DNA of 64,000 nt. Origin: Vicinamibacterales bacterium. GTDB lineage: Bacteria; Acidobacteriota; Vicinamibacteria; Vicinamibacterales; 2-12-FULL-66-21. Under the pieces are notes generated by a model. The model saw only the letters and a program-made list of their open reading frames with translations. It ran no database searches and had not been told where the DNA came from. Made by a program: the position numbers and the translations under genes. Positions 3,407-52,924 of the stretch are shown here, piece by piece. Within the stretch, counting starts at the first letter, position 1; every line of letters starts with the position of its first letter. The stretch is taken from assembly GCA_035495555.1 (NCBI GenBank), contig DATJFQ010000022.1, forward strand, positions 61,273-125,272, given 5' to 3'.

Positions 3407-4012
3407 ATGCTGCCATTGACGAAGCGTCAACGGGAAATCCTCGATTACCTGAACGACTTCATCGCCCGTCACGGCTACGCGCCCAGCCTGGAAGAGATCG
3501 GCCGCCGGTTCGGCCTCTCGTCGCTCGCGACCGTTCATAAACATCTCACCAACCTTCAGGAAAAGGGCTTCATCAAGCGCGCGTGGAACCGCAGCCGATC
3601 CGTCGAGCTCGTCTCGGCGCCCGTCGGCGGGCGGGCCGTCGAACTTCCGCTTCTGGGATACGTCGCGGCCGGCGCTCCGATCGAGGCCGTTGTCGGGAAC
3701 GAAACGATCGTCGTACCCGAGGACCTGGTCGGCAAACGGGACACATACGTGCTGCGCGTCAAAGGCGATTCGATGATCGACGAGCAGATCCGCGACGGCG
3801 ACTTCGTCATCGTGGAGGACCGCCATACCGCCGACAACGGCGAGATGGTGATCGCGATGCTGCACGCGGGGGACGTCACGCTCAAGAAGTTCTACCGGGA
3901 ATACGGTCACATCCGCCTCCAGCCCGCCAACCCGGCCATGCAGCCGATCCTCGTGCATCCTGACCAGGTGCAGATTCAGGGCGTCGTCGTGGGGGTCATG
4001 CGCCGATATTGA
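3407..4012 (+). CDS. lexA: LexA repressor / SOS autopeptidase
   Basis: N-terminal winged HTH (LTKRQREILDYLNDFIARHGYAPSLEEIGRRFGLSSLATVHKHLTNLQEKGFI) and C-terminal S24 domain (VKGDSMIDEQIRDGDFVIV...VTLKKF). Confidence 0.95.
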   Translation: MLPLTKRQREILDYLNDFIARHGYAPSLEEIGRRFGLSSLATVHKHLTNLQEKGFIKRAWNRSRSVELVSAPVGGRAVELPLLGYVAAGAPIEAVVGNETIVVPEDLVGKRDTYVLRVKGDSMIDEQIRDGDFVIVEDRHTADNGEMVIAMLHAGDVTLKKFYREYGHIRLQPANPAMQPILVHPDQVQIQGVVVGVMRRY

Positions 4013-4038
4013 TCCGTGCCCTCAGGCATACTAGGCGC

Positions 4039-4353
4039 ATGAACGAACGCAAACAGATCAATTTCACGATCGTGCCCGACGATGAAAACGATTCACCGCG
4101 CACGTATGCGAACTTCTGCGCGATCTCCCATACGCCGTTCGACTTCACGCTGTCGTTCTGCGAAGTGCAACCGTTGTCGCAGCGCGACATCGAGAACGCC
4201 GAATCCGATCACGTCGTCCGCGCGCCGGTCCGTGCGCGCGTCGTGCTGCCGCTGCAGGTCGTGCCCAACCTGATTGCCGCCCTCCAGGAGCACATGCGCG
4301 TCTTCGCGGATTCGACGGGCACCGCCGCGTGGAACAAGGACCCGGTGCACTGA
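4039..4353 (+). CDS. DUF3467-family protein
   Basis: YANFCAISHTPFDFTLSFCEV core typical of DUF3467. I prefer the ATG at 4039 (MNERKQINF) over the ORF-track start at 4009, which overlaps lexA. Confidence 0.7.
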   Translation: MNERKQINFTIVPDDENDSPRTYANFCAISHTPFDFTLSFCEVQPLSQRDIENAESDHVVRAPVRARVVLPLQVVPNLIAALQEHMRVFADSTGTAAWNKDPVH

Positions 4354-8220: not shown

Positions 8221-10644
8221 TTGTCGACGAGCGCCCTCTCCCGGCGGCTGAGCGAGTTCGCAGGTGTCGCGCTGTTTGCCGCCGCGCTCATCTGGTTCAT
8301 TTCGCTCGCCAGCTACAGTGCGTCCGACCCGGTGTGGTTCTTCAACACCGGCTCCGATCTCGCGCCGGCCAACTTCGCGGGCCGCGTCGGCGCGTTCCTC
8401 GCGGAGCTGTCGTTTCAGGTGTTCGGCTACGCGGCGTACCTGATTCCCGCGATTATGGCGGTCATCGGCTGGCATTATTTCTGGTGCCGCGTCGTGGATG
8501 CGGCTTACACGAAAATCCTCGGCGCCATTCTGCTCTTCAGTTGCGCTGCGGCGTTCCTGGCGCTGGCCTTTGGCGCCGCCGGCGCGGGCGGCAAGGATTT
8601 CCGGCCCGGCGGGGTCGTGGGCGATCGCCTCGCCAGCCTGTTGTCGGCATACCTGAACCGCACCGGATCGATCATCCTGATCCTGACGCTGCTGTTCCTC
8701 GCCGTGATTCTGTCGACGCAGTTCTCCTTCGGCAGGCTCTTCGGCGCCCTGTTCCAGCTCGCCCACGATCGCTGGACGACGATCCTGGCCGCGATGCGGG
8801 AACGGCGGGAAGAGAAGCGCCGCGACAAGCAGCGCCAGGAAGTGCTCAGGAAGCACCTCGGCAAAGACGGCAAGGATCCGAAGCCGGGCAAAGACACCAG
8901 GGAGCCGCAGATCGAACGCGCCGCGCGGGAGAAGGCGATCGCGGTGGCCAATGTCGAGAGCGCTCCCCGCGCGGCTCGCGAAGCGGAAGAATCGACGGCT
9001 GAGCCGCCGAGGAAAGCGTCGAAGACGGCTGCCATGGTCAACGCGGCTGCCGCGGCGTTGAAAGCCGCGTCGTCGAGGCCGACGCCTCCGCCGCCCATCA
9101 AGCGGCCGCCACCCGTCGCCGCGGCTCCGACGCTGCCGCTCTCCGAGCCCGAGAAGGCGCCCATCGAACGGCGGAAGGGCGCGTTCACGCTGCCGCCGCT
9201 GGCGCTCCTCGATGCCGCCAAGGGGGAGCGCAAGATCGACGAGCGCGAACTGATGGAGGGCGCCCGTCTCCTCGAGGAGAAGTGCCGCGAGTTCTCCGTC
9301 GAGGGCACCGTCGTCCAGATCCACCCGGGTCCGGTGGTGACGACCTACGAATTCAAGCCCGACGCGGGCGTGAAGTACAGCAAGATCACGGGCCTTGCCG
9401 ACGATCTCTGTCTGGCGATGCAGGCGGAGTCCGTCATCATCGACCGCATACCCGGCAAATCGACGGTGGGCATTCAGATTCCGAATCCCCATCGTGAAGC
9501 GATTTCGCTGCGCGAGCTGCTCGAGTCGGACGCCTACAAGCGCTCGCATTCGAAGCTGACGATCGCGCTCGGGAAAACGATCCACGGCGAACCGTTCGTC
9601 AGCGATCTCGCGACGATGCCGCACCTGCTCATCGCGGGCTCAACGGGCGCGGGCAAGTCGGTCAGCGTCAACGCGATGATCACGAGCATCCTGATGCGCG
9701 CGACGCCGGACGACGTGCGATTCATCATGGTCGATCCCAAGCGCCTGGAGCTGGGGATGTACGAAGACATCCCGCACCTCCTCACGCCCGTGGTGATGGA
9801 CCCGAAGCTGGCGTCGAACGCGCTGCGGTGGGCCGTCCGCGAGATGGAAGAGCGCTACAAGATCCTCGCCGCGTTCGGCGTCCGCAACATCGAGCAGTAC
9901 AACCGCAACGTCCGGGCGATGCAGGAGGAGAAGAAAGGCGAGCCGCTCCTCGACGACAAAGGCAACGAGATCAAGCCGCTCCCGTTCATCGTCGTGCTGA
10001 TCGACGAGCTGGCGGACCTGATGATGGTGGCCGGCAACGAAGTCGAAGAGTCGATCGCGCGACTGGCCCAGATGGCGCGCGCGATCGGCATTCATCTCGT
10101 GCTCGCCACGCAGCGTCCGTCGGTCGACGTCATCACCGGCCTGATCAAAGCGAACCTCCCCGCCCGCATCTCGTTTCGGGTCTCGTCGAAGATCGATTCC
10201 CGCACGATCCTCGACGGCAACGGCGCCGAGCAACTGCTTGGCAAGGGGGACATGCTGTATCTGCCGCCCGCGTCCTCCCGCTTCCTGCGGCTGCACGGCC
10301 CGTACATCTCGGAACAGGAAAGCGCCCGGCTCGCGAGCTTTCTGCGGAAGCAGGCCAAACCCTCGTACGACACCACGATCACGGCGGACGAGAAGGGCGG
10401 GCAGGAAGCGATGCAGTTCGAGAAGGACGACTTGTACGACGAAGCCGCCCGGATCGTCGTGTCGAGCGGACAGGCATCGATCTCGTATCTGCAGCGGCGC
10501 CTCCGGATTGGATTCAGCCGCGCCGCGCGGCTGGTCGACATGATGGAAATGGACGGCCTCGTGTCCCCCGCCGCGGGCGGGAAGGCCCGCGAGGTCCTCG
10601 TGAAGAAGGACTATTTCGACGAAGTCGACGCCCAGCTTCGATAG
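8221..10644 (+). CDS. ftsK: DNA translocase FtsK
   Basis: N-terminal TM helices, a K/E/P-rich linker, a motor domain (MPHLLIAGSTGAGKSVSVNAMI, VVLIDELADLMM) and a C-terminal gamma domain (SISYLQRRLRIGFSRAARLVDMME). TTG start at 8221, just after the rnj stop. The ORF-track extension back to 6988 overlaps rnj. Confidence 0.9.
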   Translation: MSTSALSRRLSEFAGVALFAAALIWFISLASYSASDPVWFFNTGSDLAPANFAGRVGAFLAELSFQVFGYAAYLIPAIMAVIGWHYFWCRVVDAAYTKILGAILLFSCAAAFLALAFGAAGAGGKDFRPGGVVGDRLASLLSAYLNRTGSIILILTLLFLAVILSTQFSFGRLFGALFQLAHDRWTTILAAMRERREEKRRDKQRQEVLRKHLGKDGKDPKPGKDTREPQIERAAREKAIAVANVESAPRAAREAEESTAEPPRKASKTAAMVNAAAAALKAASSRPTPPPPIKRPPPVAAAPTLPLSEPEKAPIERRKGAFTLPPLALLDAAKGERKIDERELMEGARLLEEKCREFSVEGTVVQIHPGPVVTTYEFKPDAGVKYSKITGLADDLCLAMQAESVIIDRIPGKSTVGIQIPNPHREAISLRELLESDAYKRSHSKLTIALGKTIHGEPFVSDLATMPHLLIAGSTGAGKSVSVNAMITSILMRATPDDVRFIMVDPKRLELGMYEDIPHLLTPVVMDPKLASNALRWAVREMEERYKILAAFGVRNIEQYNRNVRAMQEEKKGEPLLDDKGNEIKPLPFIVVLIDELADLMMVAGNEVEESIARLAQMARAIGIHLVLATQRPSVDVITGLIKANLPARISFRVSSKIDSRTILDGNGAEQLLGKGDMLYLPPASSRFLRLHGPYISEQESARLASFLRKQAKPSYDTTITADEKGGQEAMQFEKDDLYDEAARIVVSSGQASISYLQRRLRIGFSRAARLVDMMEMDGLVSPAAGGKAREVLVKKDYFDEVDAQLR

Positions 10645-10653
10645 GCGGTCCCT

Positions 10654-12468
10654 ATGAAACACTCGATTCTGACTCTCGCGCTCGCGTTCGGCCTGCTTGC
10701 CGCGCCTCCGGCATTTGCCGCGAACAGCGCGCGCGACATGTACAACCGCGCGCAAGGTGAGGAGCACGCCGTTCGATCGGCGTCCAGCCCGTCACAAGCG
10801 GCGGTGCGGCGTGTGGTCGCCGCGTACGAACGCATCGTCCTGAAATATCCGGCGAGCGGGTACAGCGATAACGCACTCTGGCAGGCCGCCAATCTGTCCC
10901 TGCTCGCCTATCAGCGTTTCGGCGATGAGGCGGACCGGGACAAAGCGCACAAGCTGTTTGCGGCGCTCAGGTCGCAGTACCCGTCGAGTAAGTTCGCGAA
11001 GAGCGCGAGAGCCGCCGATGCGGCCGCCGTTGGGGATGCGGACTCGACCCCCGCGTCCCCTGCGGACGCGGAATCCACGGATGCCGATCGGACGGCGGCG
11101 CCGGCCATCGGCGCCGCGCAGACATCAGCCGATACGAAGGGCGCTACCGCCACTACAGGGAAGAAGGAATCCCGGCCGGTCCCTGGCACCGTCCTGCTCA
11201 AGGACATTCACCGCACGCTCATGCCCGATGGCGTCCGGATCACGATCGATCTCGGGAGCGAAGTGTCCTACCACCAGGAAGAAGTGGACAACCCGAAGCG
11301 CGTGTTCTTCGATCTGAAGGGCGTCAGCGCCGCGAGTTCGCTGCAGGACACAGCGCTGAAGTTCGACGACGACGTCGTGCGCGAGATTCGGCTGGGCCGC
11401 CATCCCCAGAACACAACCCGGGTCGTCATGGATCTCGAAGGCATCGACGCCTACAACGTGTATCCGATGTACGCGCCATACCGGCTCGTCATCGACTTCA
11501 AGCGATCCGCGACGGCGAAGGCGACGGGGACGGTCCCGCCGCCGCTCGTGGCATCGCTCCCCGCTCCGCAGCCGCCGACCGAATCGAACCCGGCCCCGCT
11601 GGCCGCGCCCGCCGCGCCGCCGGCGCCCAAGCCCGACGTGAAGGCCGCAAAAACGGATGCCAGGGCCACCCTGCCGTCGAAACCGGCAGCCAGCGTCGCG
11701 GTCGCGCCTCCCGCCGCGAACTCGAACGGCAAGTTCTCGCTCTCGCGGCAGCTCGGCCTCGGTGTTTCGCGCATTGTCATCGACGCCGGCCACGGTGGCC
11801 ACGATCCCGGCGCACAGGGTAACGGCATCAACGAATCGGAGCTGACGCTCGACATCGCGCAGCGGCTGGAGAAGCTGCTCGACAAGCAGCCAGGCGTCGA
11901 TGTGGTGATGACGCGCGATACCGACGTCTTTATCCCGCTCCAGGAACGCACCGCGATCGCGAACCGCGAAGGCGCCGATTTGTTCCTGTCCATTCACGCG
12001 AACGCCAGCCGCAGTCCGGCCGCGCGCGGCATCGAGACGTACTTCCTGAACTTCGCGACGAATCCGGAAGCCGAAGCCGTCGCGGCGCGCGAGAACGCGG
12101 GTTCCGCCCAGTCGATGCACAACCTGCCGGACATCGTGAAAGCGATCGCGCTCAACAACAAGATCAACGAGTCGCGCGACTTCGCCGAGACGGTTCAGAA
12201 GTCGATGGTGCGCCGGCTGAAAACGAAAAACAAGACGCTGCGGGACCTCGGCGTGAAGCAGGCGCCGTTCGTCGTGCTCATCGGCGCCGGGATGCCCAGC
12301 GTGCTCGCCGAGATGTCGTTCCTGACGAACAAGCAGGAAGGTGCGCTGCTCAAGACCGGCGCGTACCGGCAGCAGATTGCTCAGGCGTTGTTCGACGCCG
12401 TGGTGTCGTACCAACAGGCATTGAAGAAGCAGACGACCGTGACGGCGAAGAAAGCCACTGAGTTCTAA
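10654..12468 (+). CDS. N-acetylmuramoyl-L-alanine amidase with N-terminal TPR-like and AMIN domains
   Basis: Signal peptide, then an AMIN-like segment (VRITIDLGSEVSYHQEEVDNPKRVFFDLKGV), a Pro/Ala linker and an Amidase_3 core (IVIDAGHGGHDPGA...DLFLSIHANA...GIETYF). Confidence 0.9.
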   Translation: MKHSILTLALAFGLLAAPPAFAANSARDMYNRAQGEEHAVRSASSPSQAAVRRVVAAYERIVLKYPASGYSDNALWQAANLSLLAYQRFGDEADRDKAHKLFAALRSQYPSSKFAKSARAADAAAVGDADSTPASPADAESTDADRTAAPAIGAAQTSADTKGATATTGKKESRPVPGTVLLKDIHRTLMPDGVRITIDLGSEVSYHQEEVDNPKRVFFDLKGVSAASSLQDTALKFDDDVVREIRLGRHPQNTTRVVMDLEGIDAYNVYPMYAPYRLVIDFKRSATAKATGTVPPPLVASLPAPQPPTESNPAPLAAPAAPPAPKPDVKAAKTDARATLPSKPAASVAVAPPAANSNGKFSLSRQLGLGVSRIVIDAGHGGHDPGAQGNGINESELTLDIAQRLEKLLDKQPGVDVVMTRDTDVFIPLQERTAIANREGADLFLSIHANASRSPAARGIETYFLNFATNPEAEAVAARENAGSAQSMHNLPDIVKAIALNNKINESRDFAETVQKSMVRRLKTKNKTLRDLGVKQAPFVVLIGAGMPSVLAEMSFLTNKQEGALLKTGAYRQQIAQALFDAVVSYQQALKKQTTVTAKKATEF

Positions 12469-12477
12469 ATTCCGGCT

Positions 12478-12512
12478 CAATCACCAATCACCAATCATCA
12501 ATCTACAATGGT
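12478..12512. repeat. tandem heptamer array, 5 x CAATCAN (degenerating)
   Basis: Read directly: caatcac caatcac caatcat caatcta caatggt. A TACAAT hexamer (12504-12509) is embedded in it. Confidence 0.85.
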
Positions 12513-14796: not shown

Positions 14797-14866
14797 AACT
14801 CCCAATTCCCAACTCCCAATTAAGTCTCAATGCGCGTTGGGAATTGGGAGTTGGGAATTGGGAGTT
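14797..14866. terminator. perfect 25-bp inverted repeat built from TTGGGAN heptamers; likely terminator between convergent genes
   Basis: aactcccaattcccaactcccaatt (14797-14821), a 20-nt loop, then aattgggagttgggaattgggagtt (14842-14866). On the minus strand the hairpin is followed by TTTTCTTG, downstream of the thiolase gene. Confidence 0.6.
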
Positions 14867-14879
14867 GACGTCGCCAGCG

Positions 14880-28829: not shown

Positions 28830-30665
28830 ATGAGAATCCGGGTTCTGCTCGCAGCCGCCGCGATCGCGGCCGGACTTGTCACTTCTCTGCCCGCGTCCAC
28901 CGCCCTGATGCCGATCGACGAGGTGCGTCCCGGAATGGACGGCGTCGGGCGGACGGTGTTCCAGGGCGCCGACCCCCAGGACTTCACCGTCCACATCATC
29001 GGCGTGCTGAAAAACGTGCAGGCGCCGCAGCGGGACCTGATTCTCGCCAGGCTCGAAGGCGGTCCGCTCGCCGCGACGGGCGTCATTGCGGGCATGAGCG
29101 GCAGCCCCGTCTACATCGATGGACGACTCGTGGGCGCCATCTCGTACTCAATCGGATCGTTCTCGAAGGAACCGATCGCGGGCATCACGCCGATCGGTGA
29201 AATGATCGATGCCACGGCGACGGCATCCACCCGGCGCGCGAACGCGCCGGCGGCGTCCCGCATTCCGCTGCCGATCACGCCGCAGAACCTCGCGTCGGCG
29301 ATCCGAAGCGCGTACGCGCAGGTCGCGGCGTTCGCCGACCGGCCCGCCGACGTGCAGTCGATCGGGATGCCCGCTGCGTCCGGCGCGCAGATCGGTGCGA
29401 TGCTCAGGCCGATCGCCACTCCGCTCGTGCTGAGCGGCTTCGACGCGCGTACGGCGGATCTCGTCACGTCCATGTTCGGCGGCGCGGGGTTCACGCCGAT
29501 GCTGGGCGGCGCGGCGGGAACCCCGGATGACACGAAGCCGGCCCCGCTGCGGCCGGGCGATCCCGTAGGCGTCCAGCTGCTCAGCGGCGATGGCGAAATG
29601 GGCGCCACCGGAACCGTCACACACGTCGACGGCACCCGCGTCTACGCATTCGGGCACCCGTTCTTCAACGTCGGGCCGGCGGAATTCCCCATGACGCGCG
29701 CGCGCGTTTACACGACGCTCCCGAGCCTGCAGTCCTCGTTCAAGATCGCGACGATGGGCGACGTGATCGGCTCTGTGCAGCAGGATCGGGCAACGGCGAT
29801 CGCGGGAACGCTCGGCGCAGGGCCCCGGCTGATTCCGATCCACGTGTCGTTGACGTCGGACCGCGGCCCTGAACACACCTTCACCTTCAACATCGTCAAC
29901 GACCAGTTGTTCACGCCGCTGCTCGCCTACGTGTCGCTGTTCAACACGCTCGGGAGCTACGAGCGGCAGTTCGGCGCGGCGACGTTCAGCGTCAAGGGCA
30001 GCGCGCAGTTCGCGGATCACGCGAGCCTCGACTTCGACGACATTTTCACCGGCGATGGCCCGATCGCCGGCGCCTCGGCGTACGTGGCGGGACCGCTGAC
30101 GATGCTGCTCGCGAACGATCTCGAACGTGTCGACTTGAAATCCCTGGACCTGAAAATCGCGGCGTCCGAAGAGTCGCGCAGCGCAACCATCGAACGGGTG
30201 TGGATCGACGAAGTGCGTCCGCGCGCGGGCCAGACTGTCCCGCTCAAGGTGCTCACGCGCAACTATCGCGGGGCCGAAACGATTTCGACGATCCCGATCG
30301 ACATCCCGTCGAACGCGAGCGGGCAGCTCACCGTGCTCGTGACCGACGGCAAGCAGCTCAATCAGCTCGAGGCGCACGAGCTTCGCCGCGAGCTCGAGCC
30401 GCAGAGCGTCGCGCAGATGATCCGCGTGCTGAACGAAACCCATCGCAACAACCGCATCTACGTGCGGCTGCTGACGGGAAGCCCGGGCGCCGTCATCAAC
30501 GGCGAGGCGATGACCTCGCTTCCCCCGTCGGTGCTGGCCGTCCTCGACGGTGACCGCAGCAGCGGCGACTTCACCCCGATCCGGAGCGCCGCGATCGGCG
30601 AATGGGAACTGCCGATGACGTCAGCCGTGTCGGGGACGCGCGCGCTCACCATCGACGTTCGTTGA
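28830..30665 (+). CDS. secreted peptidase S55 (SpoIVB-like) family protein
   Basis: Signal peptide, then the GVIAGMSGSPVYIDGRLVGAISY serine motif, as in SpoIVB-type proteases. Confidence 0.7.
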   Translation: MRIRVLLAAAAIAAGLVTSLPASTALMPIDEVRPGMDGVGRTVFQGADPQDFTVHIIGVLKNVQAPQRDLILARLEGGPLAATGVIAGMSGSPVYIDGRLVGAISYSIGSFSKEPIAGITPIGEMIDATATASTRRANAPAASRIPLPITPQNLASAIRSAYAQVAAFADRPADVQSIGMPAASGAQIGAMLRPIATPLVLSGFDARTADLVTSMFGGAGFTPMLGGAAGTPDDTKPAPLRPGDPVGVQLLSGDGEMGATGTVTHVDGTRVYAFGHPFFNVGPAEFPMTRARVYTTLPSLQSSFKIATMGDVIGSVQQDRATAIAGTLGAGPRLIPIHVSLTSDRGPEHTFTFNIVNDQLFTPLLAYVSLFNTLGSYERQFGAATFSVKGSAQFADHASLDFDDIFTGDGPIAGASAYVAGPLTMLLANDLERVDLKSLDLKIAASEESRSATIERVWIDEVRPRAGQTVPLKVLTRNYRGAETISTIPIDIPSNASGQLTVLVTDGKQLNQLEAHELRRELEPQSVAQMIRVLNETHRNNRIYVRLLTGSPGAVINGEAMTSLPPSVLAVLDGDRSSGDFTPIRSAAIGEWELPMTSAVSGTRALTIDVR

Positions 30666-30682
30666 TCGGACGCACGAGCCAC

Positions 30683-32953
30683 ATGCCACCACGTCTTTTC
30701 CGTTTCGGGCGGGCCCTCGTGTGGCCGCTCGCTGGCATCGCCCTGACCGTCACGCTTGGCGCCGCGGCGCCGACGTTCTGGACCGTGTCGACGCAAAGCG
30801 ACTTTCTCAAAGGCGACGTCGAGAACCTCTCGATTGATGCCGACGGCCGCGTGTCACTGGGGCCGGAGACCAGGCGCCTCGCCGATACGTCCGCGCCATT
30901 CATCTGGTCCGTTGTCGCCGCGAGCGATGGCGCCCTGTGGGCCGGGACCGGCAACGAGGGGCAGGTCCTCCGCGTGGCGAAGGACGGCAAAGCGACGACC
31001 ATTTTCGACGCGACGGAGATCGAAGTGCACGCGCTCGCGCCCGCGCCAGACGGCGGCATGTATGTCGGAACGTCTCCTGACGGAAAGATCTATCGCGTCG
31101 CGGCCGATGGCAAGTCGACGACGTTTTTCGACCCCGACGATAAATACATCTGGGCTCTCGCGGTCGCGTCCGACGGCACCGTCTACGCGGGCACTGGCGA
31201 GAAGGGCGTCATCTATCGCATCGGCGCAGACGGCAAAGGCTCGGTGTTCTACAAGACGAACTCGACAAACGTCGTGTCGCTCGCCATCGACCACGAGGGC
31301 AACGTCATCGCCGGCACCGAATCGCCCGGCCGGATCTTCCGCATCGATAAAACGGGCAAGGCTTTCGTGCTGCTCGATTCGCCGTTCAAAGAGATCCACG
31401 CGGTGCGCGTGGCGGACGACGGGAGGATCTACGCGGCCGCGTTCAGCGGAACGCCGGGCGGCGAAGACCGGCCGTCGGTTCCGGTGTCCTCGGCGCCGTC
31501 CGAGCCGTCCACGGCGAGTGCGTCCGTTCCGAACGTGACGGCGGAAGTAACGTCGATCACCGTCGTCGACGCCGGGGCGTCCACCGGAGCCGGACCGACG
31601 ACGCGCGAGTCGCGAGCGCACAACGCGAAGGGGGCGATTTATCGCATCCGTACCGACGGCCTGTGGGACACCGTCTGGGAACCGACGGACGACTGGCCGT
31701 TCGATCTCCTGATCGAGAACGACGGATCGCTGCTCGTCGGCACGGGGAAGGAAGGCAAGCTGTTCCGCATCGCAGGCGAGCCCGCGCGTGCCACGTTGAT
31801 TGGGCGCGCCGGCGCGCGGCAGATCACGTCGCTCGTCCGCGACGGCTCCGGCCGCGTCGTCGCCGCGACCAGCAATCCCGGTCGGTTGTTCGCGGTCGCG
31901 AGCACCCGCGCCCCGACGGGCAAGTACGACTCAGACGTCCGCGACGCGGGCACGGTTGCGACGTGGGGCGCGATCCGCTGGCGCGCATCGGGGAATCCGG
32001 CGGACGTGCAGCTCTTCACGCGCTCGGGAAATACCGCGACGCCGGACGATACCTGGAGTGCGTGGTCGCAGGCGTATACGAGGGCCGGCGGCGAATCCAT
32101 TACGAGCCCGAATGCGCGATACCTGCAGTGGCGCGCGGTACTCTCGGCAACCCCGAGCGGGGGCGCCGGACCCGTGCTCACCTCCGTGACGACGGCGTAC
32201 CTGCCGCGCAATCTGCCGCCCGCCGTTTCAAGTATCACGGTGCATCCGCCGGGCACGGTCTTTCAACGGCCCTTCTCGACCGGCGAACTGGAGATTGCCG
32301 GATTCGACGACAACACCTCCGACGGCCGCGTGCAGGCGCAGCAGGCCTCGCAATCCTCGAGCGCCGTTCCGACGCTGCCGTCCCCGGCACTCGGACGGAA
32401 GGTCTATCAGAAGGGGCTGCAGACATTCGTCTGGAAGGCGGACGACGACAACGACGATCGGCTGCAGTACGACGTGTACTATCGCCGCGAGGGGGAAACC
32501 GCGTGGCGACCGCTGAAGCGCGGCTTGTGGGATCCAATCTTCGTCTGGGACACCACGTCGGTGCCCGACGGCACGTACTACATCAAGGTGACGGCGTCCG
32601 ATGCGCCGTCCAACTCACCGGCGACCGCGCTGACGGGTGAGCTCGAGAGCACGAGCTTCGACGTCGACAACACAGCGCCTCATATCGAGGTCCTCTCCGC
32701 GGTGCGCAACGGGAGCAAGGCTGTTATCACGTTCGTGGTGCGGGACGACCAGACCGCCGTCCAGCGGGTCGAGTATTCGTTGGATGCGAGCCGCTGGCAG
32801 GTGGCGTATCCGGTCGACGGGATTGCCGACTCACGGGAGGAGAAATACCAGGTCACGATAGACGGCAGCGAGGCCGTCCGCAGCGTGATCATCCGGGCGT
32901 CGGACGCGATGAATAACGTCTCTACGGCCGTAGCGGAGGTGAAGCGGCCATAG
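30683..32953 (+). CDS. beta-propeller repeat protein with C-terminal Y_Y_Y/Ig-like domains
   Basis: Repeated ...DG.(I/V)Y(A/V)GT...G.(I/V)(Y/F)R(I/V)..DGK... blades. C-terminal LQYDVYYRREGETAWRPL (Y_Y_Y-like). ATG 30683 (MPPRLFRFG, signal-like) lies just after the S55 gene stop. Confidence 0.7.
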   Translation: MPPRLFRFGRALVWPLAGIALTVTLGAAAPTFWTVSTQSDFLKGDVENLSIDADGRVSLGPETRRLADTSAPFIWSVVAASDGALWAGTGNEGQVLRVAKDGKATTIFDATEIEVHALAPAPDGGMYVGTSPDGKIYRVAADGKSTTFFDPDDKYIWALAVASDGTVYAGTGEKGVIYRIGADGKGSVFYKTNSTNVVSLAIDHEGNVIAGTESPGRIFRIDKTGKAFVLLDSPFKEIHAVRVADDGRIYAAAFSGTPGGEDRPSVPVSSAPSEPSTASASVPNVTAEVTSITVVDAGASTGAGPTTRESRAHNAKGAIYRIRTDGLWDTVWEPTDDWPFDLLIENDGSLLVGTGKEGKLFRIAGEPARATLIGRAGARQITSLVRDGSGRVVAATSNPGRLFAVASTRAPTGKYDSDVRDAGTVATWGAIRWRASGNPADVQLFTRSGNTATPDDTWSAWSQAYTRAGGESITSPNARYLQWRAVLSATPSGGAGPVLTSVTTAYLPRNLPPAVSSITVHPPGTVFQRPFSTGELEIAGFDDNTSDGRVQAQQASQSSSAVPTLPSPALGRKVYQKGLQTFVWKADDDNDDRLQYDVYYRREGETAWRPLKRGLWDPIFVWDTTSVPDGTYYIKVTASDAPSNSPATALTGELESTSFDVDNTAPHIEVLSAVRNGSKAVITFVVRDDQTAVQRVEYSLDASRWQVAYPVDGIADSREEKYQVTIDGSEAVRSVIIRASDAMNNVSTAVAEVKRP

Positions 32954-32960
32954 CGACTGA

Positions 32961-33158
32961 CCGATAGCCAGTGGCCAGTTCCCGGTGGCCAGTAGGCAGT
33001 TCCGAGTAGCCAGTTCCCAGTGGCCAGTTTCCAGTTCCCAGTAGGCGGTTCCCAGTAGCCAGCTCCCGATAGCTAGTTCGCAGGTACAGCTGGAGACTGG
33101 CAACTGGGAACTGGCTACTGGCTACTGGCTACTGGCTACTGGCTACTGGCTACTGGTT
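32961..33158. repeat. about 200-bp inverted pair of heptamer arrays: about 16 x NNCCAGT, then 9 x ACTGGNN (including 6 perfect ACTGGCT)
   Basis: Read directly. The left arm (32961-33075) has a 7-nt period ending in CCAGT. The right arm (33096-33158) is its complement. It fills the gap between two convergent genes. Confidence 0.9.
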
Positions 33159-33904
33159 CAGCCGCGCTTCCCTTTTCCGGTCACGGTCATGTGCTCGACG
33201 AGCCAGACCATGTTGACCGCGACGGGATCGCCGCCGTCGCGGGCAGGTTCGAGTTGCGCGCCGGTCAGCCCGCGCAGCAGCGCCTGATGACGACGGTCGC
33301 GGTCGTTCGCGAGCACCTGCAGGCCTGAGATCCGTCCTTCACGGGTCACGATCGCCGCGAGCGCCACGCTCAAGTCGCCTTCCGAGCCGGACCGCTCCAG
33401 GGCCGCGCTGACGATCCCGTCTTCCGGCACGGTGGGCGCCTGAATCCATCCGTCGAGGCTCGCCGGATTCAGGTCCGATCCGGACGGCGCGGCCACTGCC
33501 GCGATCATCGCGGCCAGCGAATCGTCGCGTTCCGGCGAGGCGAAATGCAGCATGCCGAACACGATCACCCCGCAGAGAATCGTGCCGGCGGTCGCCGCCA
33601 GACCGATCCACACGAGGTGCATGTCATCGAACATGCGGGCGACACGCGCCGTGAGCGATTCGTACGCTTCGGCGCGCATGCGGCTGATGACGCCGGGACG
33701 AAGCCCCGTCCAGTCGTCGGCCGGCCCCGGGGCTGCGCCTATCCGCATGGCGCTTCCCAGATCGAAGAACTCCTGGAGAGCCGTCGCGCAGCGCGGGCAG
33801 CCCCCAAGATGGTTCTGCACCGAAATCCGCTGCTGGATCGGCAGTTCGTCGTCGTAAAACGCGGCGAGGTGTTTCCGCACCGCCGCGCAGGTCAGTACGG
33901 TCAT
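33158..33904 (-). CDS. anti-sigma factor (zf-HC2, one TM helix)
   Basis: CAAVRKHLAAFYDDELPIQQRISVQNHLGGCPRCATAL (H-x3-C-x2-C) and a TM helix VWIGLAATAGTILCGVIVFGML. 4-nt overlap with the sigma gene. Confidence 0.8.
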   Translation of the reverse strand: MTVLTCAAVRKHLAAFYDDELPIQQRISVQNHLGGCPRCATALQEFFDLGSAMRIGAAPGPADDWTGLRPGVISRMRAEAYESLTARVARMFDDMHLVWIGLAATAGTILCGVIVFGMLHFASPERDDSLAAMIAAVAAPSGSDLNPASLDGWIQAPTVPEDGIVSAALERSGSEGDLSVALAAIVTREGRISGLQVLANDRDRRHQALLRGLTGAQLEPARDGGDPVAVNMVWLVEHMTVTGKGKRG

Positions 33905-34518
33905 GCGTCCCTCAACTGTCCGCGAAGGCTCTCACGGGCGCGGGCCAGGCGGGATTTCACCGTGCCAACCGCAATCCCGAGCGAGTAGCCGATTTCTTCA
34001 TAACTGAGGCCGTCGAGTTCCCGGAGGACCAGCGCCGTTTTCTGGTCGAACGGCAGCCGATCGAGGGCCGTCCGAATCCGCTCCGCCAGGAGCTTTTGAC
34101 CGAGCAGCCGGTCCGGCGATGCACCTTGCGCGGGCTCGGGCACGTCGCCGTGGTCCTGAATGTGCTGATCGAGCGACACCTGCTGCGCCCGGTGCCGCCG
34201 CCGCCACCACCTCTGCCTGTTCCGCGCCTGATTGACGACGATCCGGTAGATCCAGGTCCGGAGGCTGGAGTGCCCGCGGAACGTGTGAATGGTCCGGAAC
34301 ACCCGGAGAAAGACCTCTTGGGAGAGGTCGAGCGCTTCGTTGTGGTCGTTGAGGAGGTTCAGGGAGAGCTGATACACCATGCGCTGGTGCTCGCTCACGA
34401 GCTGGGCGCACGCGTCCTCGTCGCGCGCAGCACAGCGCTGGATGAGGGCGGCTTCCTTGCCGCCGACATCCGACCATGTAATGGCTCGGACCTGTTTCAC
34501 CGACAGCTCTTCCGCCAT
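33901..34518 (-). CDS. ECF RNA polymerase sigma factor
   Basis: Region 2 (ALDLSQEVFLRVFRTIHTFRGHSSLRTWIYRIVVNQARN) and region 4 (LPFDQKTALVLRELDGLSYEEIGYSLGIAVGTVKSRLARARESL). Confidence 0.9.
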   Translation of the reverse strand: MAEELSVKQVRAITWSDVGGKEAALIQRCAARDEDACAQLVSEHQRMVYQLSLNLLNDHNEALDLSQEVFLRVFRTIHTFRGHSSLRTWIYRIVVNQARNRQRWWRRRHRAQQVSLDQHIQDHGDVPEPAQGASPDRLLGQKLLAERIRTALDRLPFDQKTALVLRELDGLSYEEIGYSLGIAVGTVKSRLARARESLRGQLRDA

Positions 34519-34598
34519 TGTACTCCGCCTGAAACGTTAGATCCCGGTTTCGGGGGAAAGTTCCGGCGCCTTCGCAGGTTCCTGTTACGATCCACGCC

Positions 34599-35978
34599 GT
34601 GAAACGCCTGATCGCCGGCATCACCCTGCTCCTGCTGACGGCGGGCGGGGTGTACGGGTACATGGTCAGCCGGCGCGAGCGGACCTATGCGCGCTGGGTG
34701 GCGCAGGGAGAGGCCGACCTGGCGTCCGGAAATCTGTCTGCCGCGGTAGAGGCGTTCAGCGGCGCGATCGTGCTGAAACCGGAGGCGATGCTCGGGCACC
34801 TGCGGCGGGGGGAGGCCTATCGCCGCCGGAACGAGCTGGACGCGGCCGAACGGGATCTCCTGGAAGCCGCCGCCCTCGATCCAACCGCGACGCGGCCGCA
34901 GGAGGAACTCGGGGACGTCGCCGTCGCGCAGCAGCGGTTCGCGGCAGCCGCCGATCGTTACCGCGCCTACGTTCGGATCGACGATCGCGCGCCGCGCGTG
35001 CTGTACAAGCTCGCCTATGCCGAGTACAACGCGGGCCGGCCGGCCGCCGCCATCGAACCCCTTCGCAAGGCGCTCGCAATGGACGATCGTCTCGCGGAAG
35101 CGGCGTACCTGCTCGGCCTGTGCCAGCGCGCGCTGCAACAGACGGAACCCGCGCGGGTCGCGTTCGAGCGGGCCCTGACGATACAGCCGACGCTCTTCCG
35201 CGCACGCGAGGAGCTCGCGGATCTCTACGGCGCGCAGGGAAAGACGGAGAAGCGTCTCGATCAGCTCGAGGCGCTCGCCGCCCTGGATCCCGGCCCCGCT
35301 CGCGCGATCGCGCTCGGATTGGCGTATGCCGGGGCCGGGCAGACGGACCGGGCCGTCCTGACGCTCGCGCGCGCGTGCGAGCGCTATCCCGATCAGCAGG
35401 CCACCTATCTCGCGCTCGGCCGCGTCTGGCTGCAGGCCGCCCAGGATCGGAAGGACCACGTCGCGCTCAGTAAGGCCATGGGCGCGCTCGAGGGCGCGAT
35501 GGCGGGCGACAACAGCGATGCGATGACGCTCTTCGGCCGTGCGTTGCTGCTCGCGCAGGATCCGCAGTCGGCCGAACGCATGCTCGAGGACGCCACGCGT
35601 CGCCTGCCGGTGGATCCGGCCGCCTACCTTGCGCTGGCCGAGGCCGCCGAACAGTCGGGTGACTACAACGTCGCGCGGGACGCCCTCCTCGATTACCAGG
35701 CGATCTCGCTGGAAGATGACGCCCGGCATGTGGCGGCCGAGGATGCGCGGCTCGCCAATCTCTCGCTCCGGCTGAAAGACACGACGGCCGCGGTGAAGTA
35801 CTTCCTCGCCGCCGCGGACGCAGCCAACGACGCCGCGTACCTCGTCGATGCGGCCGCAACACAGTGGCGCGCCGGTGCGGCCGACGCCGCCCACCGGACC
35901 CTGCAGCGCGCGCTGGAGCGCGATCCGCACTATCCGGCTGCCATCGCTCTGAAGCAACGGATCGAACGAACAAAATGA
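34599..35978 (+). CDS. TPR repeat membrane-anchored protein
   Basis: N-terminal TM helix (LIAGITLLLLTAGGVYGY) followed by multiple TPR-like A/L/Y-rich repeats. GTG start. Confidence 0.75.
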   Translation: MKRLIAGITLLLLTAGGVYGYMVSRRERTYARWVAQGEADLASGNLSAAVEAFSGAIVLKPEAMLGHLRRGEAYRRRNELDAAERDLLEAAALDPTATRPQEELGDVAVAQQRFAAAADRYRAYVRIDDRAPRVLYKLAYAEYNAGRPAAAIEPLRKALAMDDRLAEAAYLLGLCQRALQQTEPARVAFERALTIQPTLFRAREELADLYGAQGKTEKRLDQLEALAALDPGPARAIALGLAYAGAGQTDRAVLTLARACERYPDQQATYLALGRVWLQAAQDRKDHVALSKAMGALEGAMAGDNSDAMTLFGRALLLAQDPQSAERMLEDATRRLPVDPAAYLALAEAAEQSGDYNVARDALLDYQAISLEDDARHVAAEDARLANLSLRLKDTTAAVKYFLAAADAANDAAYLVDAAATQWRAGAADAAHRTLQRALERDPHYPAAIALKQRIERTK

Positions 35979-35989
35979 ACCCCAACTTC

Positions 35990-36047
35990 TTGGAAATTGG
36001 GAATTGGGAATTGGGATTGGGAGTTTTCTTCATTCACCCAATCCCAA
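35990..36047. repeat. TTGGRAN heptamer array (5 units) plus inverted partial copy forming an 11-bp hairpin
   Basis: ttggaaa ttgggaa ttgggaa ttggga ttgggag. ttgggattggg (36011-36021) pairs with cccaatcccaa (36037-36047). The right arm lies in the last codons (LGIG*) of the sigma-54 activator gene. Confidence 0.85.
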
Positions 36048-52830: not shown

Positions 52831-52924
52831 GTTCTCCAGGTTCTCGGGTTCTCGGGTTCTCGGGTTCTCCGGTTCTCGGGTTCTGGGGTTCTCGGGTTGG
52901 GTTCTGGGGTTCTCCGGTTCTGCG
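52831..52924. repeat. tandem octamer array, about 12 x GTTCTCGG (variants)
   Basis: Read directly. It lies 37 nt upstream (minus-strand sense) of the VWFA gene start codon at 52794. Confidence 0.95.

Follow-up and report, generated by a model that had tools for sequence, protein, structure and literature searches.

Inverted NNCCAGT/ACTGGNN heptamer arrays between convergent genes of a Vicinamibacterales bacterium: a hairpin possibly related to PF05635 cassettes of the intervening-sequence type

The window analysed in this study is a stretch of 64,000 nucleotides (nt) from Vicinamibacterales bacterium, a soil acidobacterium (assembly GCA_035495555.1, contig DATJFQ010000022.1, positions 61,273 to 125,272 of the forward strand). 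Between two convergent genes of this window lie two facing arrays of 7-nt units, (NNCCAGT)n and (ACTGGNN)n, which together can form a long hairpin. The same repeat borders a gene for a four-helix-bundle protein of the family PF05635 (23S_rRNA_IVP) elsewhere in the genome. The locus comprises the following features, numbered from the first letter of the window.

30602-32953, plus strand: upstream convergent gene, 783 amino acids (aa), beta-propeller protein (Reg_prop repeats), TAG stop at 32951-32953
32966-33077, no strand: 5' arm, 16 in-phase NNCCAGT heptamers in one unbroken register
33078-33095, no strand: centre or 'loop', decayed heptamer units TCGCAGG TACAGCT GGAG
33096-33158, no strand: 3' arm, nine exact ACTGGNN units (NN = CA, GA, CT six times, TT)
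33158-33904, minus strand: downstream convergent gene, 248 aa, zf-HC2 anti-sigma factor, stop at 33158-33160 (TCA on the plus strand)
33901-34518, minus strand: extracytoplasmic function (ECF) sigma factor gene, co-oriented with and overlapping the anti-sigma gene

An earlier note on this DNA had counted about 16 units ending in CCAGT, and 16 do stand in register in the 5' arm, some seven of them being degenerate. When the arm was phased by 7, nine of the 16 cores were exact and 14 had at most one mismatch. Further degenerate units flank it on both sides, reaching 32959 and 33084, and the NN positions are mostly AG, GG, TC or TT. The arm has super-periods of 21 and 35 nt; Tandem Repeats Finder (TRF) returned periods of 7, 14, 21 and 35 nt, the last with 83% matches, which points to duplications of several units at a time. 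In the 3' arm all nine units were exact when phased and six read ACTGGCT, just as the note had described, and these six identical units indicate a recent expansion by slippage. TRF gave this arm a period of 7 with 8.7 copies and 94% matches, and a degenerate GCTGG unit lies ahead of it at 33089. Neither an open reading frame (ORF) nor a conserved motif was found in the centre (33078-33095); the loop is 18-55 nt long and made of decayed units. Since the stop codons of the convergent genes lie at 32951-32953 and 33158-33160, the arrays occupy the entire 204-nt spacer (32954-33157). The 3' arm ends at 33158, within 1 nt of the stop codon of the anti-sigma gene or in overlap with it, so the contact of the last unit with this codon had been seen correctly. 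The ECF sigma and anti-sigma genes form an operon whose end is at the hairpin.

The two arms are complementary at 84% over 67 nt. The RNA of the plus strand folded with -141.5 kcal/mol (z -10.3) and that of the minus strand with -131.6 kcal/mol (z -9.4), and none of 200 shuffled sequences folded as well. The very long imperfect hairpin proposed earlier can therefore form on either strand. In an Rfam scan of 32600-33500 nothing passed the threshold; the weaker matches were to models of miRNA precursors, which stand for hairpins in general. A minus-strand ORF running through the array (32831-33103, 90 aa) was rejected as a mechanical reading frame built of repeat units. The units carry at most GG, short of the G-run per unit that defines G-quadruplex repeats.

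The genome of the window (hereafter G000) is a 4.43-Mb draft of 123 contigs (C-numbers) with 65.9% GC, and G001 is its congener. Gene contexts were taken from a crude codon-bias ORF caller, in which stop positions are exact and starts approximate, and genome counts such as (CCAGTNN)x4 are matches to a four-unit pattern. A simple detector found 298 period-7 arrays in G000 as compared to 0-32 for the other periods within 4-12, and the merged period-7 arrays of TRF numbered 729 and covered 39 kb. Adjacent CCAGT/ACTGG cores occurred at a 7-nt spacing 106 times per Mb, while the other spacings of 5-13 nt gave 0.5-4 per Mb and a spacing of 14 nt gave 17.6 per Mb; the 7-nt spacing is thus enriched ca. 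30- to 100-fold over neighbouring non-multiple spacings. This genome-wide excess excludes chance.

The main families in G000 are GCGAGGN, TCCCAAN/NTTGGGA, NNCCAGT/ACTGGNN, CGATGNN, GCAGATN and GGTGCTN. The genome search for other 7-nt inverted arrays that had been suggested earlier returned further examples in number: a sensitive search gave ca. 88 CCAGT/ACTGG loci, of which 32-33 are inverted pairs with a median arm of 33 nt and a median centre of 24 nt. The copy in the window is the fourth largest. Its description as a second heptamer family, distinct from TTGGGAN and sharing the same inverted-array architecture, is supported. The window carries other heptamer arrays as well, namely TTGGGAG x10 (1551-1620), a TCCCAAT/TTGGGAA hairpin (14800-14867), TTGGGAA x5 (35990-36022) and CAATCAC x4 (12478-12509). 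At some sites of G000 two families adjoin, an AACTCCC array abutting an ACTGG array or CCAGTTG abutting GGGAGTT (C7:47810-47907; C116:7587-7716; C79:50878-50926; C16:9483-9518). At these junctions CCAGUUG can pair with GAGUUGG through two G-U wobbles in the RNA of one strand only, and no consistent relation of the junctions to gene direction was seen.

The order of the arms is absolute. In all inverted pairs of the family in G000, CCAGT comes first and ACTGG second (33:0), and the other families of this genome behave likewise (TCCCAA then TTGGGA, 38:0; CGATG then CATCG, 12:0; GCAGAT then ATCTGC, 9:0; GGTGC then GCACC, 3:0). The CCAGT-first order is also visible in two other genomes of the order, G127 and G138. 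Because an inverted pair is its own reverse complement, arm order is independent of gene orientation. A fixed order is what descent from a polar progenitor predicts, whereas independent slippage or chance juxtaposition does not predict it.

A candidate for such a progenitor is found in the PF05635 genes. G000 has nine PF05635 matches, one of which (C61) is cut by a contig end, and all eight uncut genes sit between inverted arrays, each pair belonging to a different family. The genes and their arms are as follows.

C25: PF05635 cassette, arms CCAGT / ACTGG
C77: PF05635 cassette, arms GCAGAT / ATCTGC
C37: PF05635 cassette with a decayed gene, arms CGATG / CATCG
C13: PF05635 cassette, arms GGTGCT / GCACCGA
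C32: PF05635 cassette, arms GAAGTCG / CGACTTC
C109: PF05635 cassette, arms ATCCCTG / GGGATTC
C68: PF05635 cassette, 8-mer arms
C43: PF05635 cassette, 6-mer arms
C61: PF05635 gene, GCGAGG on the sole assembled side

The C25 gene (10632-10979, 116 aa; L061:1132-1482) is bordered by (NNCCAGT)n on one side (10466-10551) and by (ACTGGNN)n on the other (11028-11094). This cassette also lies between convergent genes with its right arm overlapping a stop codon, a setting that matches the locus in the window. The arm order of the cassettes equals that of the gene-less hairpins for the CCAGT, GCAGAT, CGATG and GGTGC families, and most of the abundant heptamer families of G000 possess a gene-bearing copy. 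The window holds 10.8 copies of the 8-mer GGTTCTCG at 52839-52921; the same 8-mer forms the inverted arms round the PF05635 gene C68:3483-4007, so the link between cassette and arm is not limited to 7-nt units.

The closest homologues of the C25 protein occur in four genomes. The homologue of G160 (59% identity) has CCAGC/GCTGG arms, that of G138 (58%) CCAGT/ACTGG arms, that of G024 (51%, a pseudogene) CTTCCGG-like arms, and that of G037 (46%) TCAGT/ACTGA arms including TAACTGA units. Homologues at 39-43% identity have TCAGT, ACAGT, TCAGC, ACAGC or CCAGC arms, and more distant ones have unrelated arms. Two complementary period-7 arms were present at 29 of 41 genes. The distance between proteins correlated with that between arm units (Mantel r 0.42, p 2e-4), a value inflated by kinship. 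The genome-wide abundance, or bloom, of each family was as follows.

G000: resident arm core CCAGT; (CCAGTNN)x4 215, (TCAGTNN)x4 11, (TTGGGAN)x4 84
G138: resident arm core CCAGT; (CCAGTNN)x4 147, (TCAGTNN)x4 0, (TTGGGAN)x4 0
G037: resident arm core TCAGT; (CCAGTNN)x4 6, (TCAGTNN)x4 275
G030: resident arm core TCAGT; (CCAGTNN)x4 0, (TCAGTNN)x4 37
G001 (same genus as G000): (CCAGTNN)x4 1, (TTGGGAN)x4 65
G127: (CCAGTNN)x4 51, (TTGGGAN)x4 1
G091: (CCAGTNN)x4 53, (TTGGGAN)x4 0
G162: (CCAGTNN)x4 37

The bloom tracks the arm core of the resident cassette, CCAGT or TCAGT. G001 has no close homologue of the C25 gene (best 31% identity) and no CCAGT family. For a CCGTT family the support is weaker, with 10, 12 and 0 matches in the cassette genomes and any match in 14 of 151 genomes. 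Any (CCAGTNN)x4 match was found in 25 of the 151 sampled genomes of the order. Since TTGGGAN is common to G000 and G001 while CCAGT is not, and other genera carry CCAGT without TTGGGAN, CCAGT is a separate family with its own history. A shared origin of the class is supported, in a form that the earlier note had not anticipated: in several families the same repeats arm PF05635 cassettes. TTGGGAN and CCAGT are uncoupled between genomes. Reversed control patterns revealed more lineage-specific heptamer blooms (TGACCNN in G056, G070 and G123; TTGCCNN in G127), and each genome of the order has its own heptamer repertoire.

A single orthologous spacer, flanked by genes for an ABC-permease-like and an elongation factor G (EF-G)-like protein, houses the homologues of G138, G160, G024 and G037. 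In G000 this spacer (C35:25261-25595; L060:5261-5595) contains CCAGT...ACTGG arms round a gene-less loop of ca. 150 nt and looks like a cassette that lost its gene. The spacer of G001, the ancestral site, holds a decayed gene-less remnant, and that of G162 a gene-less hairpin of another family, with a gene-bearing copy elsewhere in the genome. Genes are thus lost in situ while arms are kept, and gene and arms occupy different sites according to lineage.

Copying was evident in G037, where an element of ca. 125 nt is near-identical at at least 11 loci with unrelated flanks (L116-L131, 16 loci). It consists of a small hairpin, CTACAGCG-N10-CGCTGTAG, followed by 4-5 TCAGT units that a 19-nt loop separates from five ACTGA units. 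This is direct copy-paste of the kind seen in MITEs (transposable elements of the miniature inverted-repeat type); no obvious target duplication accompanies it.

The spacer occupied by the array in the window was also followed through the order. The arrangement of the propeller gene facing the anti-sigma and sigma genes is syntenic at 28 of 29 relatives' loci examined, with a stop-to-stop distance that runs from an overlap up to 654 nt; about half of the relatives have overlapping stops or stops 0-20 nt apart. No CCAGT array was found in the orthologous spacer of the relatives examined. G001, which is collinear across the whole window at ca. 78% nucleotide identity, has a 66-nt spacer that folds no better than shuffles (z -0.6) and offers no usable homology to the array. 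The syntenic 80 kb of G001 lack all six heptamer loci of the window, and at the orthologous sites that could be paired G001 is without most of the intergenic arrays of G000; one TTGGGAN hairpin is common to both. The array in the window is thus young and not conserved. The same spacer of G030, a genome from a different family of Vicinamibacterales, carries a 654-nt insert that is a full cassette (L025:3730-4383), with GGGGTGA/GGGAAGA heptamer arms and a 125-aa PF05635 ORF at 3930-4307 (E 1.3e-17). The spacer of G037 holds a gene-less TCAGT/ACTGA hairpin, that of G010 a GTGCNNN/NNNGCAC hairpin, and those of G021 and G017 other repeats; the remaining spacers are at most 90 nt long, mostly 0-60 nt, apart from one of 198 nt without an evident array. 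The propeller/anti-sigma spacer is a recurrent site for such elements.

Because the repeat of the locus is the one that arms a PF05635 gene both here and in relatives, the hairpin can be read as an 'empty' relative of such a cassette. We consider it rather probable, with considerable room for doubt, that the locus is a gene-less relative of a PF05635 cassette of the intervening-sequence (IVS) type that was later remodelled by slippage. Once G000 and its congener had parted, the hairpin would have entered, or grown in, this permissive spacer between convergent genes, being either a copy of another CCAGT locus or a cassette whose loop gene had disappeared, and the copy may descend from, or have been seeded by, a CCAGT-armed cassette lineage. 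Since then replication slippage has lengthened and homogenised the arms independently, a change that the six identical ACTGGCT units record. Transcription from either side would yield a stem of ca. 67 bp, expected, by analogy with the IVS stems of rRNA, to be a substrate of RNase III and a 3'-end structure for both mRNAs, and dispersed arms, by recombining, could move the gene. G000 does encode RNase III (rnc, C16:9539-10213, minus strand), and this gene ends beside the heptamer array at 9483-9518.

Several observations weigh against this reading. No gene remnant was found in the loop of the window locus, nor, by tblastn or Pfam, in the C35 loop; the loops of C100, C98 and C113 likewise gave no four-helix-bundle remnant in either search. 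The CCAGT loci of G000 have no heterogeneous unit order in common, only homogeneous words, and round the 33 hairpins of this genome there is no flank module, common flank 8-mer or target duplication. This lack of a copy signature implies that local slippage has recently been dominant in G000, where copying is putative. No enzyme that might mobilise CCAGT arrays was found: a Y1/RAYT transposase (PF01797; RAYT, repetitive extragenic palindrome-associated tyrosine transposase) is encoded in all five genomes compared, with or without CCAGT arrays, and G000 has no reverse transcriptase. G127 and G162 contain CCAGT arrays with no CCAGT-armed gene detected, and the co-variation and Mantel tests use related genomes that amount to about three independent lineages. 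No four-helix-bundle gene with TTGGGAN arms was found in the G000 draft; this family, without a gene-bearing copy, is among the most abundant in G000 and its most frequent hairpin former. Small genes of other families, DinB (a four-helix-bundle fold) and Smr, also occur between inverted arrays of one family (C38:41592-42235; C9:12031-12416), so that either PF05635 is not the sole cargo or the flanking arrays are coincidental. That RNase III cuts the stem, or that expression is affected at all, is a prediction.

The alternative that survives best is that the locus is an ordinary heptameric microsatellite, in which both arrays were born in situ by slippage from chance seeds and have no relation to the cassette. 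Slippage typically leaves traces such as the six identical ACTGGCT units and the 35-nt super-period, every locus of G000 has its own NN composition with only homogeneous words shared between loci, and no target duplication, flank module or enzyme came to light. The heptamer excess of many bacteria has also been ascribed to slippage (PMC4692102, PMC4679880). However, slippage alone leaves the 33:0 arm order unexplained, as it does the retention of a 5-nt core with two free positions over 88 loci and several genera, the switch between CCAGT and TCAGT in step with the resident PF05635 arms, and the position of 8/8 assessable PF05635 genes between such arrays. We therefore regard this explanation as unlikely.

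A second alternative is that the hairpin is a structure selected for the gene pair, acting as a bidirectional terminator without a U-tract, as a roadblock or as a stabiliser of 3' ends by which the ECF sigma/anti-sigma operon is insulated from the propeller gene. The arrays fill the convergent spacer exactly and fold strongly on both strands, and in several relatives this spacer holds hairpin-forming repeats of other kinds. The placement of the family in G000 agrees with such a role in that its loci lie between convergent, tandem and divergent genes in 22, 40 and 7 cases as against ca. 14.5, 39.7 and 14.9 expected (chi-square ca. 8.1, p ca. 0.02, computed by hand), an enrichment between convergent and a depletion between divergent genes. 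The arrays typically take up 60% of their spacer, and 9 nt (median) separate them from the adjoining gene at its 3' end. On the other hand, the structure is absent from the spacer of the congener, whose 66 nt have no significant fold, and from those of most relatives, in about half of which the closely set or overlapping stops leave little or no spacer.

The idea of a bidirectional terminator, also raised in the earlier note, finds no support at the locus. A scan of 32000-34600 for consensus promoters and terminators returned none, neither arm is followed by a T/U run, and there is no terminator-like site. Hairpins of the same family stand between rpsG and fusA, rplC and rplD, rplN..rplE, rpsH and rplF, and rplR and rpsE, that is, inside the str, S10 and spc ribosomal-protein operons, and many 3' arms end directly upstream of start codons. 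The genes named are co-transcribed in essentially all bacteria. A Rho-independent terminator was thus ruled out by the missing U-tract together with the family hairpins inside these operons. Past the last gene of the ribosomal-protein cluster (C35:22956-23161), CCAGT arrays and a short ACTGG arm enclose an element, a GC stem GAGCCGA...TCGGCTC followed by a T-run, that looks like a canonical terminator. The hairpin in the window has no locus-specific conserved function, and selection for the gene pair is quite doubtful as its origin. In annotation, such hairpins should be labelled neither as terminators nor as regulatory elements of the genes beside them; draft assemblies also break at them.

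In the last alternative, the arrays would be multivalent binding sites at which a trans-acting factor, the cognate four-helix-bundle protein or a host protein that binds RNA or DNA, reads the CCAGT/ACUGG core at a 7-nt spacing, forming a dispersed regulatory or partition-like network; the hairpin would then be a by-product. A core of 5 conserved nt beside two free positions is what binding-site arrays typically show, Avd-type bundles of four helices are nucleic-acid binders, and solo arrays are biased towards ACUGG in the mRNA sense (19 vs 7). The ends of many arrays just ahead of start codons recall the TAACTGA repeats (PMC4679880). This explanation is nevertheless improbable, since no start codon lies on either side of the locus, the arms often outlast the PF05635 gene as it decays (the G024 pseudogene, C35 of G000, G001), and in Coxiella the protein is probably not made (PMC4990558).

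Beyond the gene-less cassette relative proposed for this locus, we put forward, tentatively, a wider scheme that is possible but less than likely. The heptamer blooms would be descendants, without a gene and similar to MITEs, of IVS-type cassettes. Every resident PF05635 (Avd/S23p-like) gene would dictate a particular arm heptamer, arrays of which would be seeded or maintained genome-wide for as long as the gene is present, and the gene would hop between hairpins by arm recombination. If this were true, the bacterial heptamer repeats, among them the cyanobacterial short tandemly repeated repetitive (STRR) heptamers (STRR1 unit CCCCAGT), GGGAATC, TAACTGA and CCAGT/TCAGT, would share one common origin with the intervening sequences of rRNA. 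Three puzzles that have long been separate, namely the over-representation of heptamers, the nature of STRR- and TAACTGA-type repeats and the source of ORF-bearing 23S IVSs, are framed together by this locus and its relatives, in which one spacer is empty, holds a gene-less hairpin or holds a full cassette according to lineage. The 'common generating mechanism' for which the earlier note argued thereby becomes testable as protein-repeat specificity, RNase III processing and copying between loci.

As far as we found in the literature searched, three features are apparently undescribed: an arm order without exception, a single spacer occupied repeatedly by elements with and without the gene, and a change of core, CCAGT or TCAGT, that parallels the resident cassette. 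Among known systems, the heptameric simple sequence repeats GGGAATC of Xanthomonas and GGGGAYT of Nostoc are 7-nt tandem units in strong genome-wide excess (Rehm et al. 2015, PMC4692102). Most of them lie between genes and near the 3' end of the upstream ORF; they vary in length and sequence between close relatives, and in Xanthomonas form 70-75 facing pairs with the potential for stem-loops or cruciforms (PMC4692102). The arrays described here are like them in their tandem 7-nt units, genome-wide excess, intergenic position and facing pairs. They differ in that the repeats of Xanthomonas and Nostoc, rich in G, were investigated as formers of G-quadruplexes, while CCAGT lacks G-runs and occurs in the phylum Acidobacteriota. 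Neither an absolute arm order nor a link to PF05635 was reported by Rehm et al. (2015).

The IVS in the 23S rRNA of Coxiella burnetii has a 28-bp stem, is excised by RNase III and carries an S23p (PF05635) ORF in its loop (Warrier et al. 2016, PMC4990558). Its arm contains tandem GACAGAT heptamers whose number varies by strain, a selfish or mobile origin has been proposed, and RNase III cuts the heptamer-bearing stem (PMC4990558). The locus in the window resembles this IVS in its long stem of inverted terminal arms with tandem heptamers, and the C25 cassette and the spacer of G030 have exactly its layout, PF05635 ORF included. Unlike the IVS, the locus lies between protein-coding genes instead of in a 23S rRNA helix, has no ORF and has far longer arms (16 and 9 units).

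TAACTGA direct repeats occur in Beggiatoaceae, cyanobacteria and Bacteroidetes as short sets of 2-6 copies with one inverted case (MacGregor 2015, PMC4679880). Their units are near-identical to those found here, TAACTGG, CAACTGG and TAACTGA occurring in this family and in the arms of G037, and both kinds share a patchy phyletic spread, a presence in ribosomal-protein operons and upstream of starts, and empty spacers in close relatives. In contrast to these sets, the locus in the window is inverted and lies between two stop codons, not upstream of a start; neither a hairpin architecture nor a four-helix-bundle link was described for TAACTGA repeats (PMC4679880). Like MITEs and REPINs (hairpins of paired repetitive extragenic palindromes; PMC3116915), the arrays are high-copy intergenic hairpins of fixed internal polarity, and the ca. 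125-nt element of G037 is, as they are, repeated near-identically at many loci (at least 11). Unlike MITEs and REPINs, the loci of G000 have no conserved internal sequence, termini or target duplication, and their arms are tandem arrays changing by slippage; no correlation with RAYT was found among the five genomes compared. In all, the feature belongs to known kinds: heptameric simple-sequence-repeat hairpins (PMC4692102) with TAACTGA-like units (PMC4679880) and stems of the IVS type (PMC4990558).

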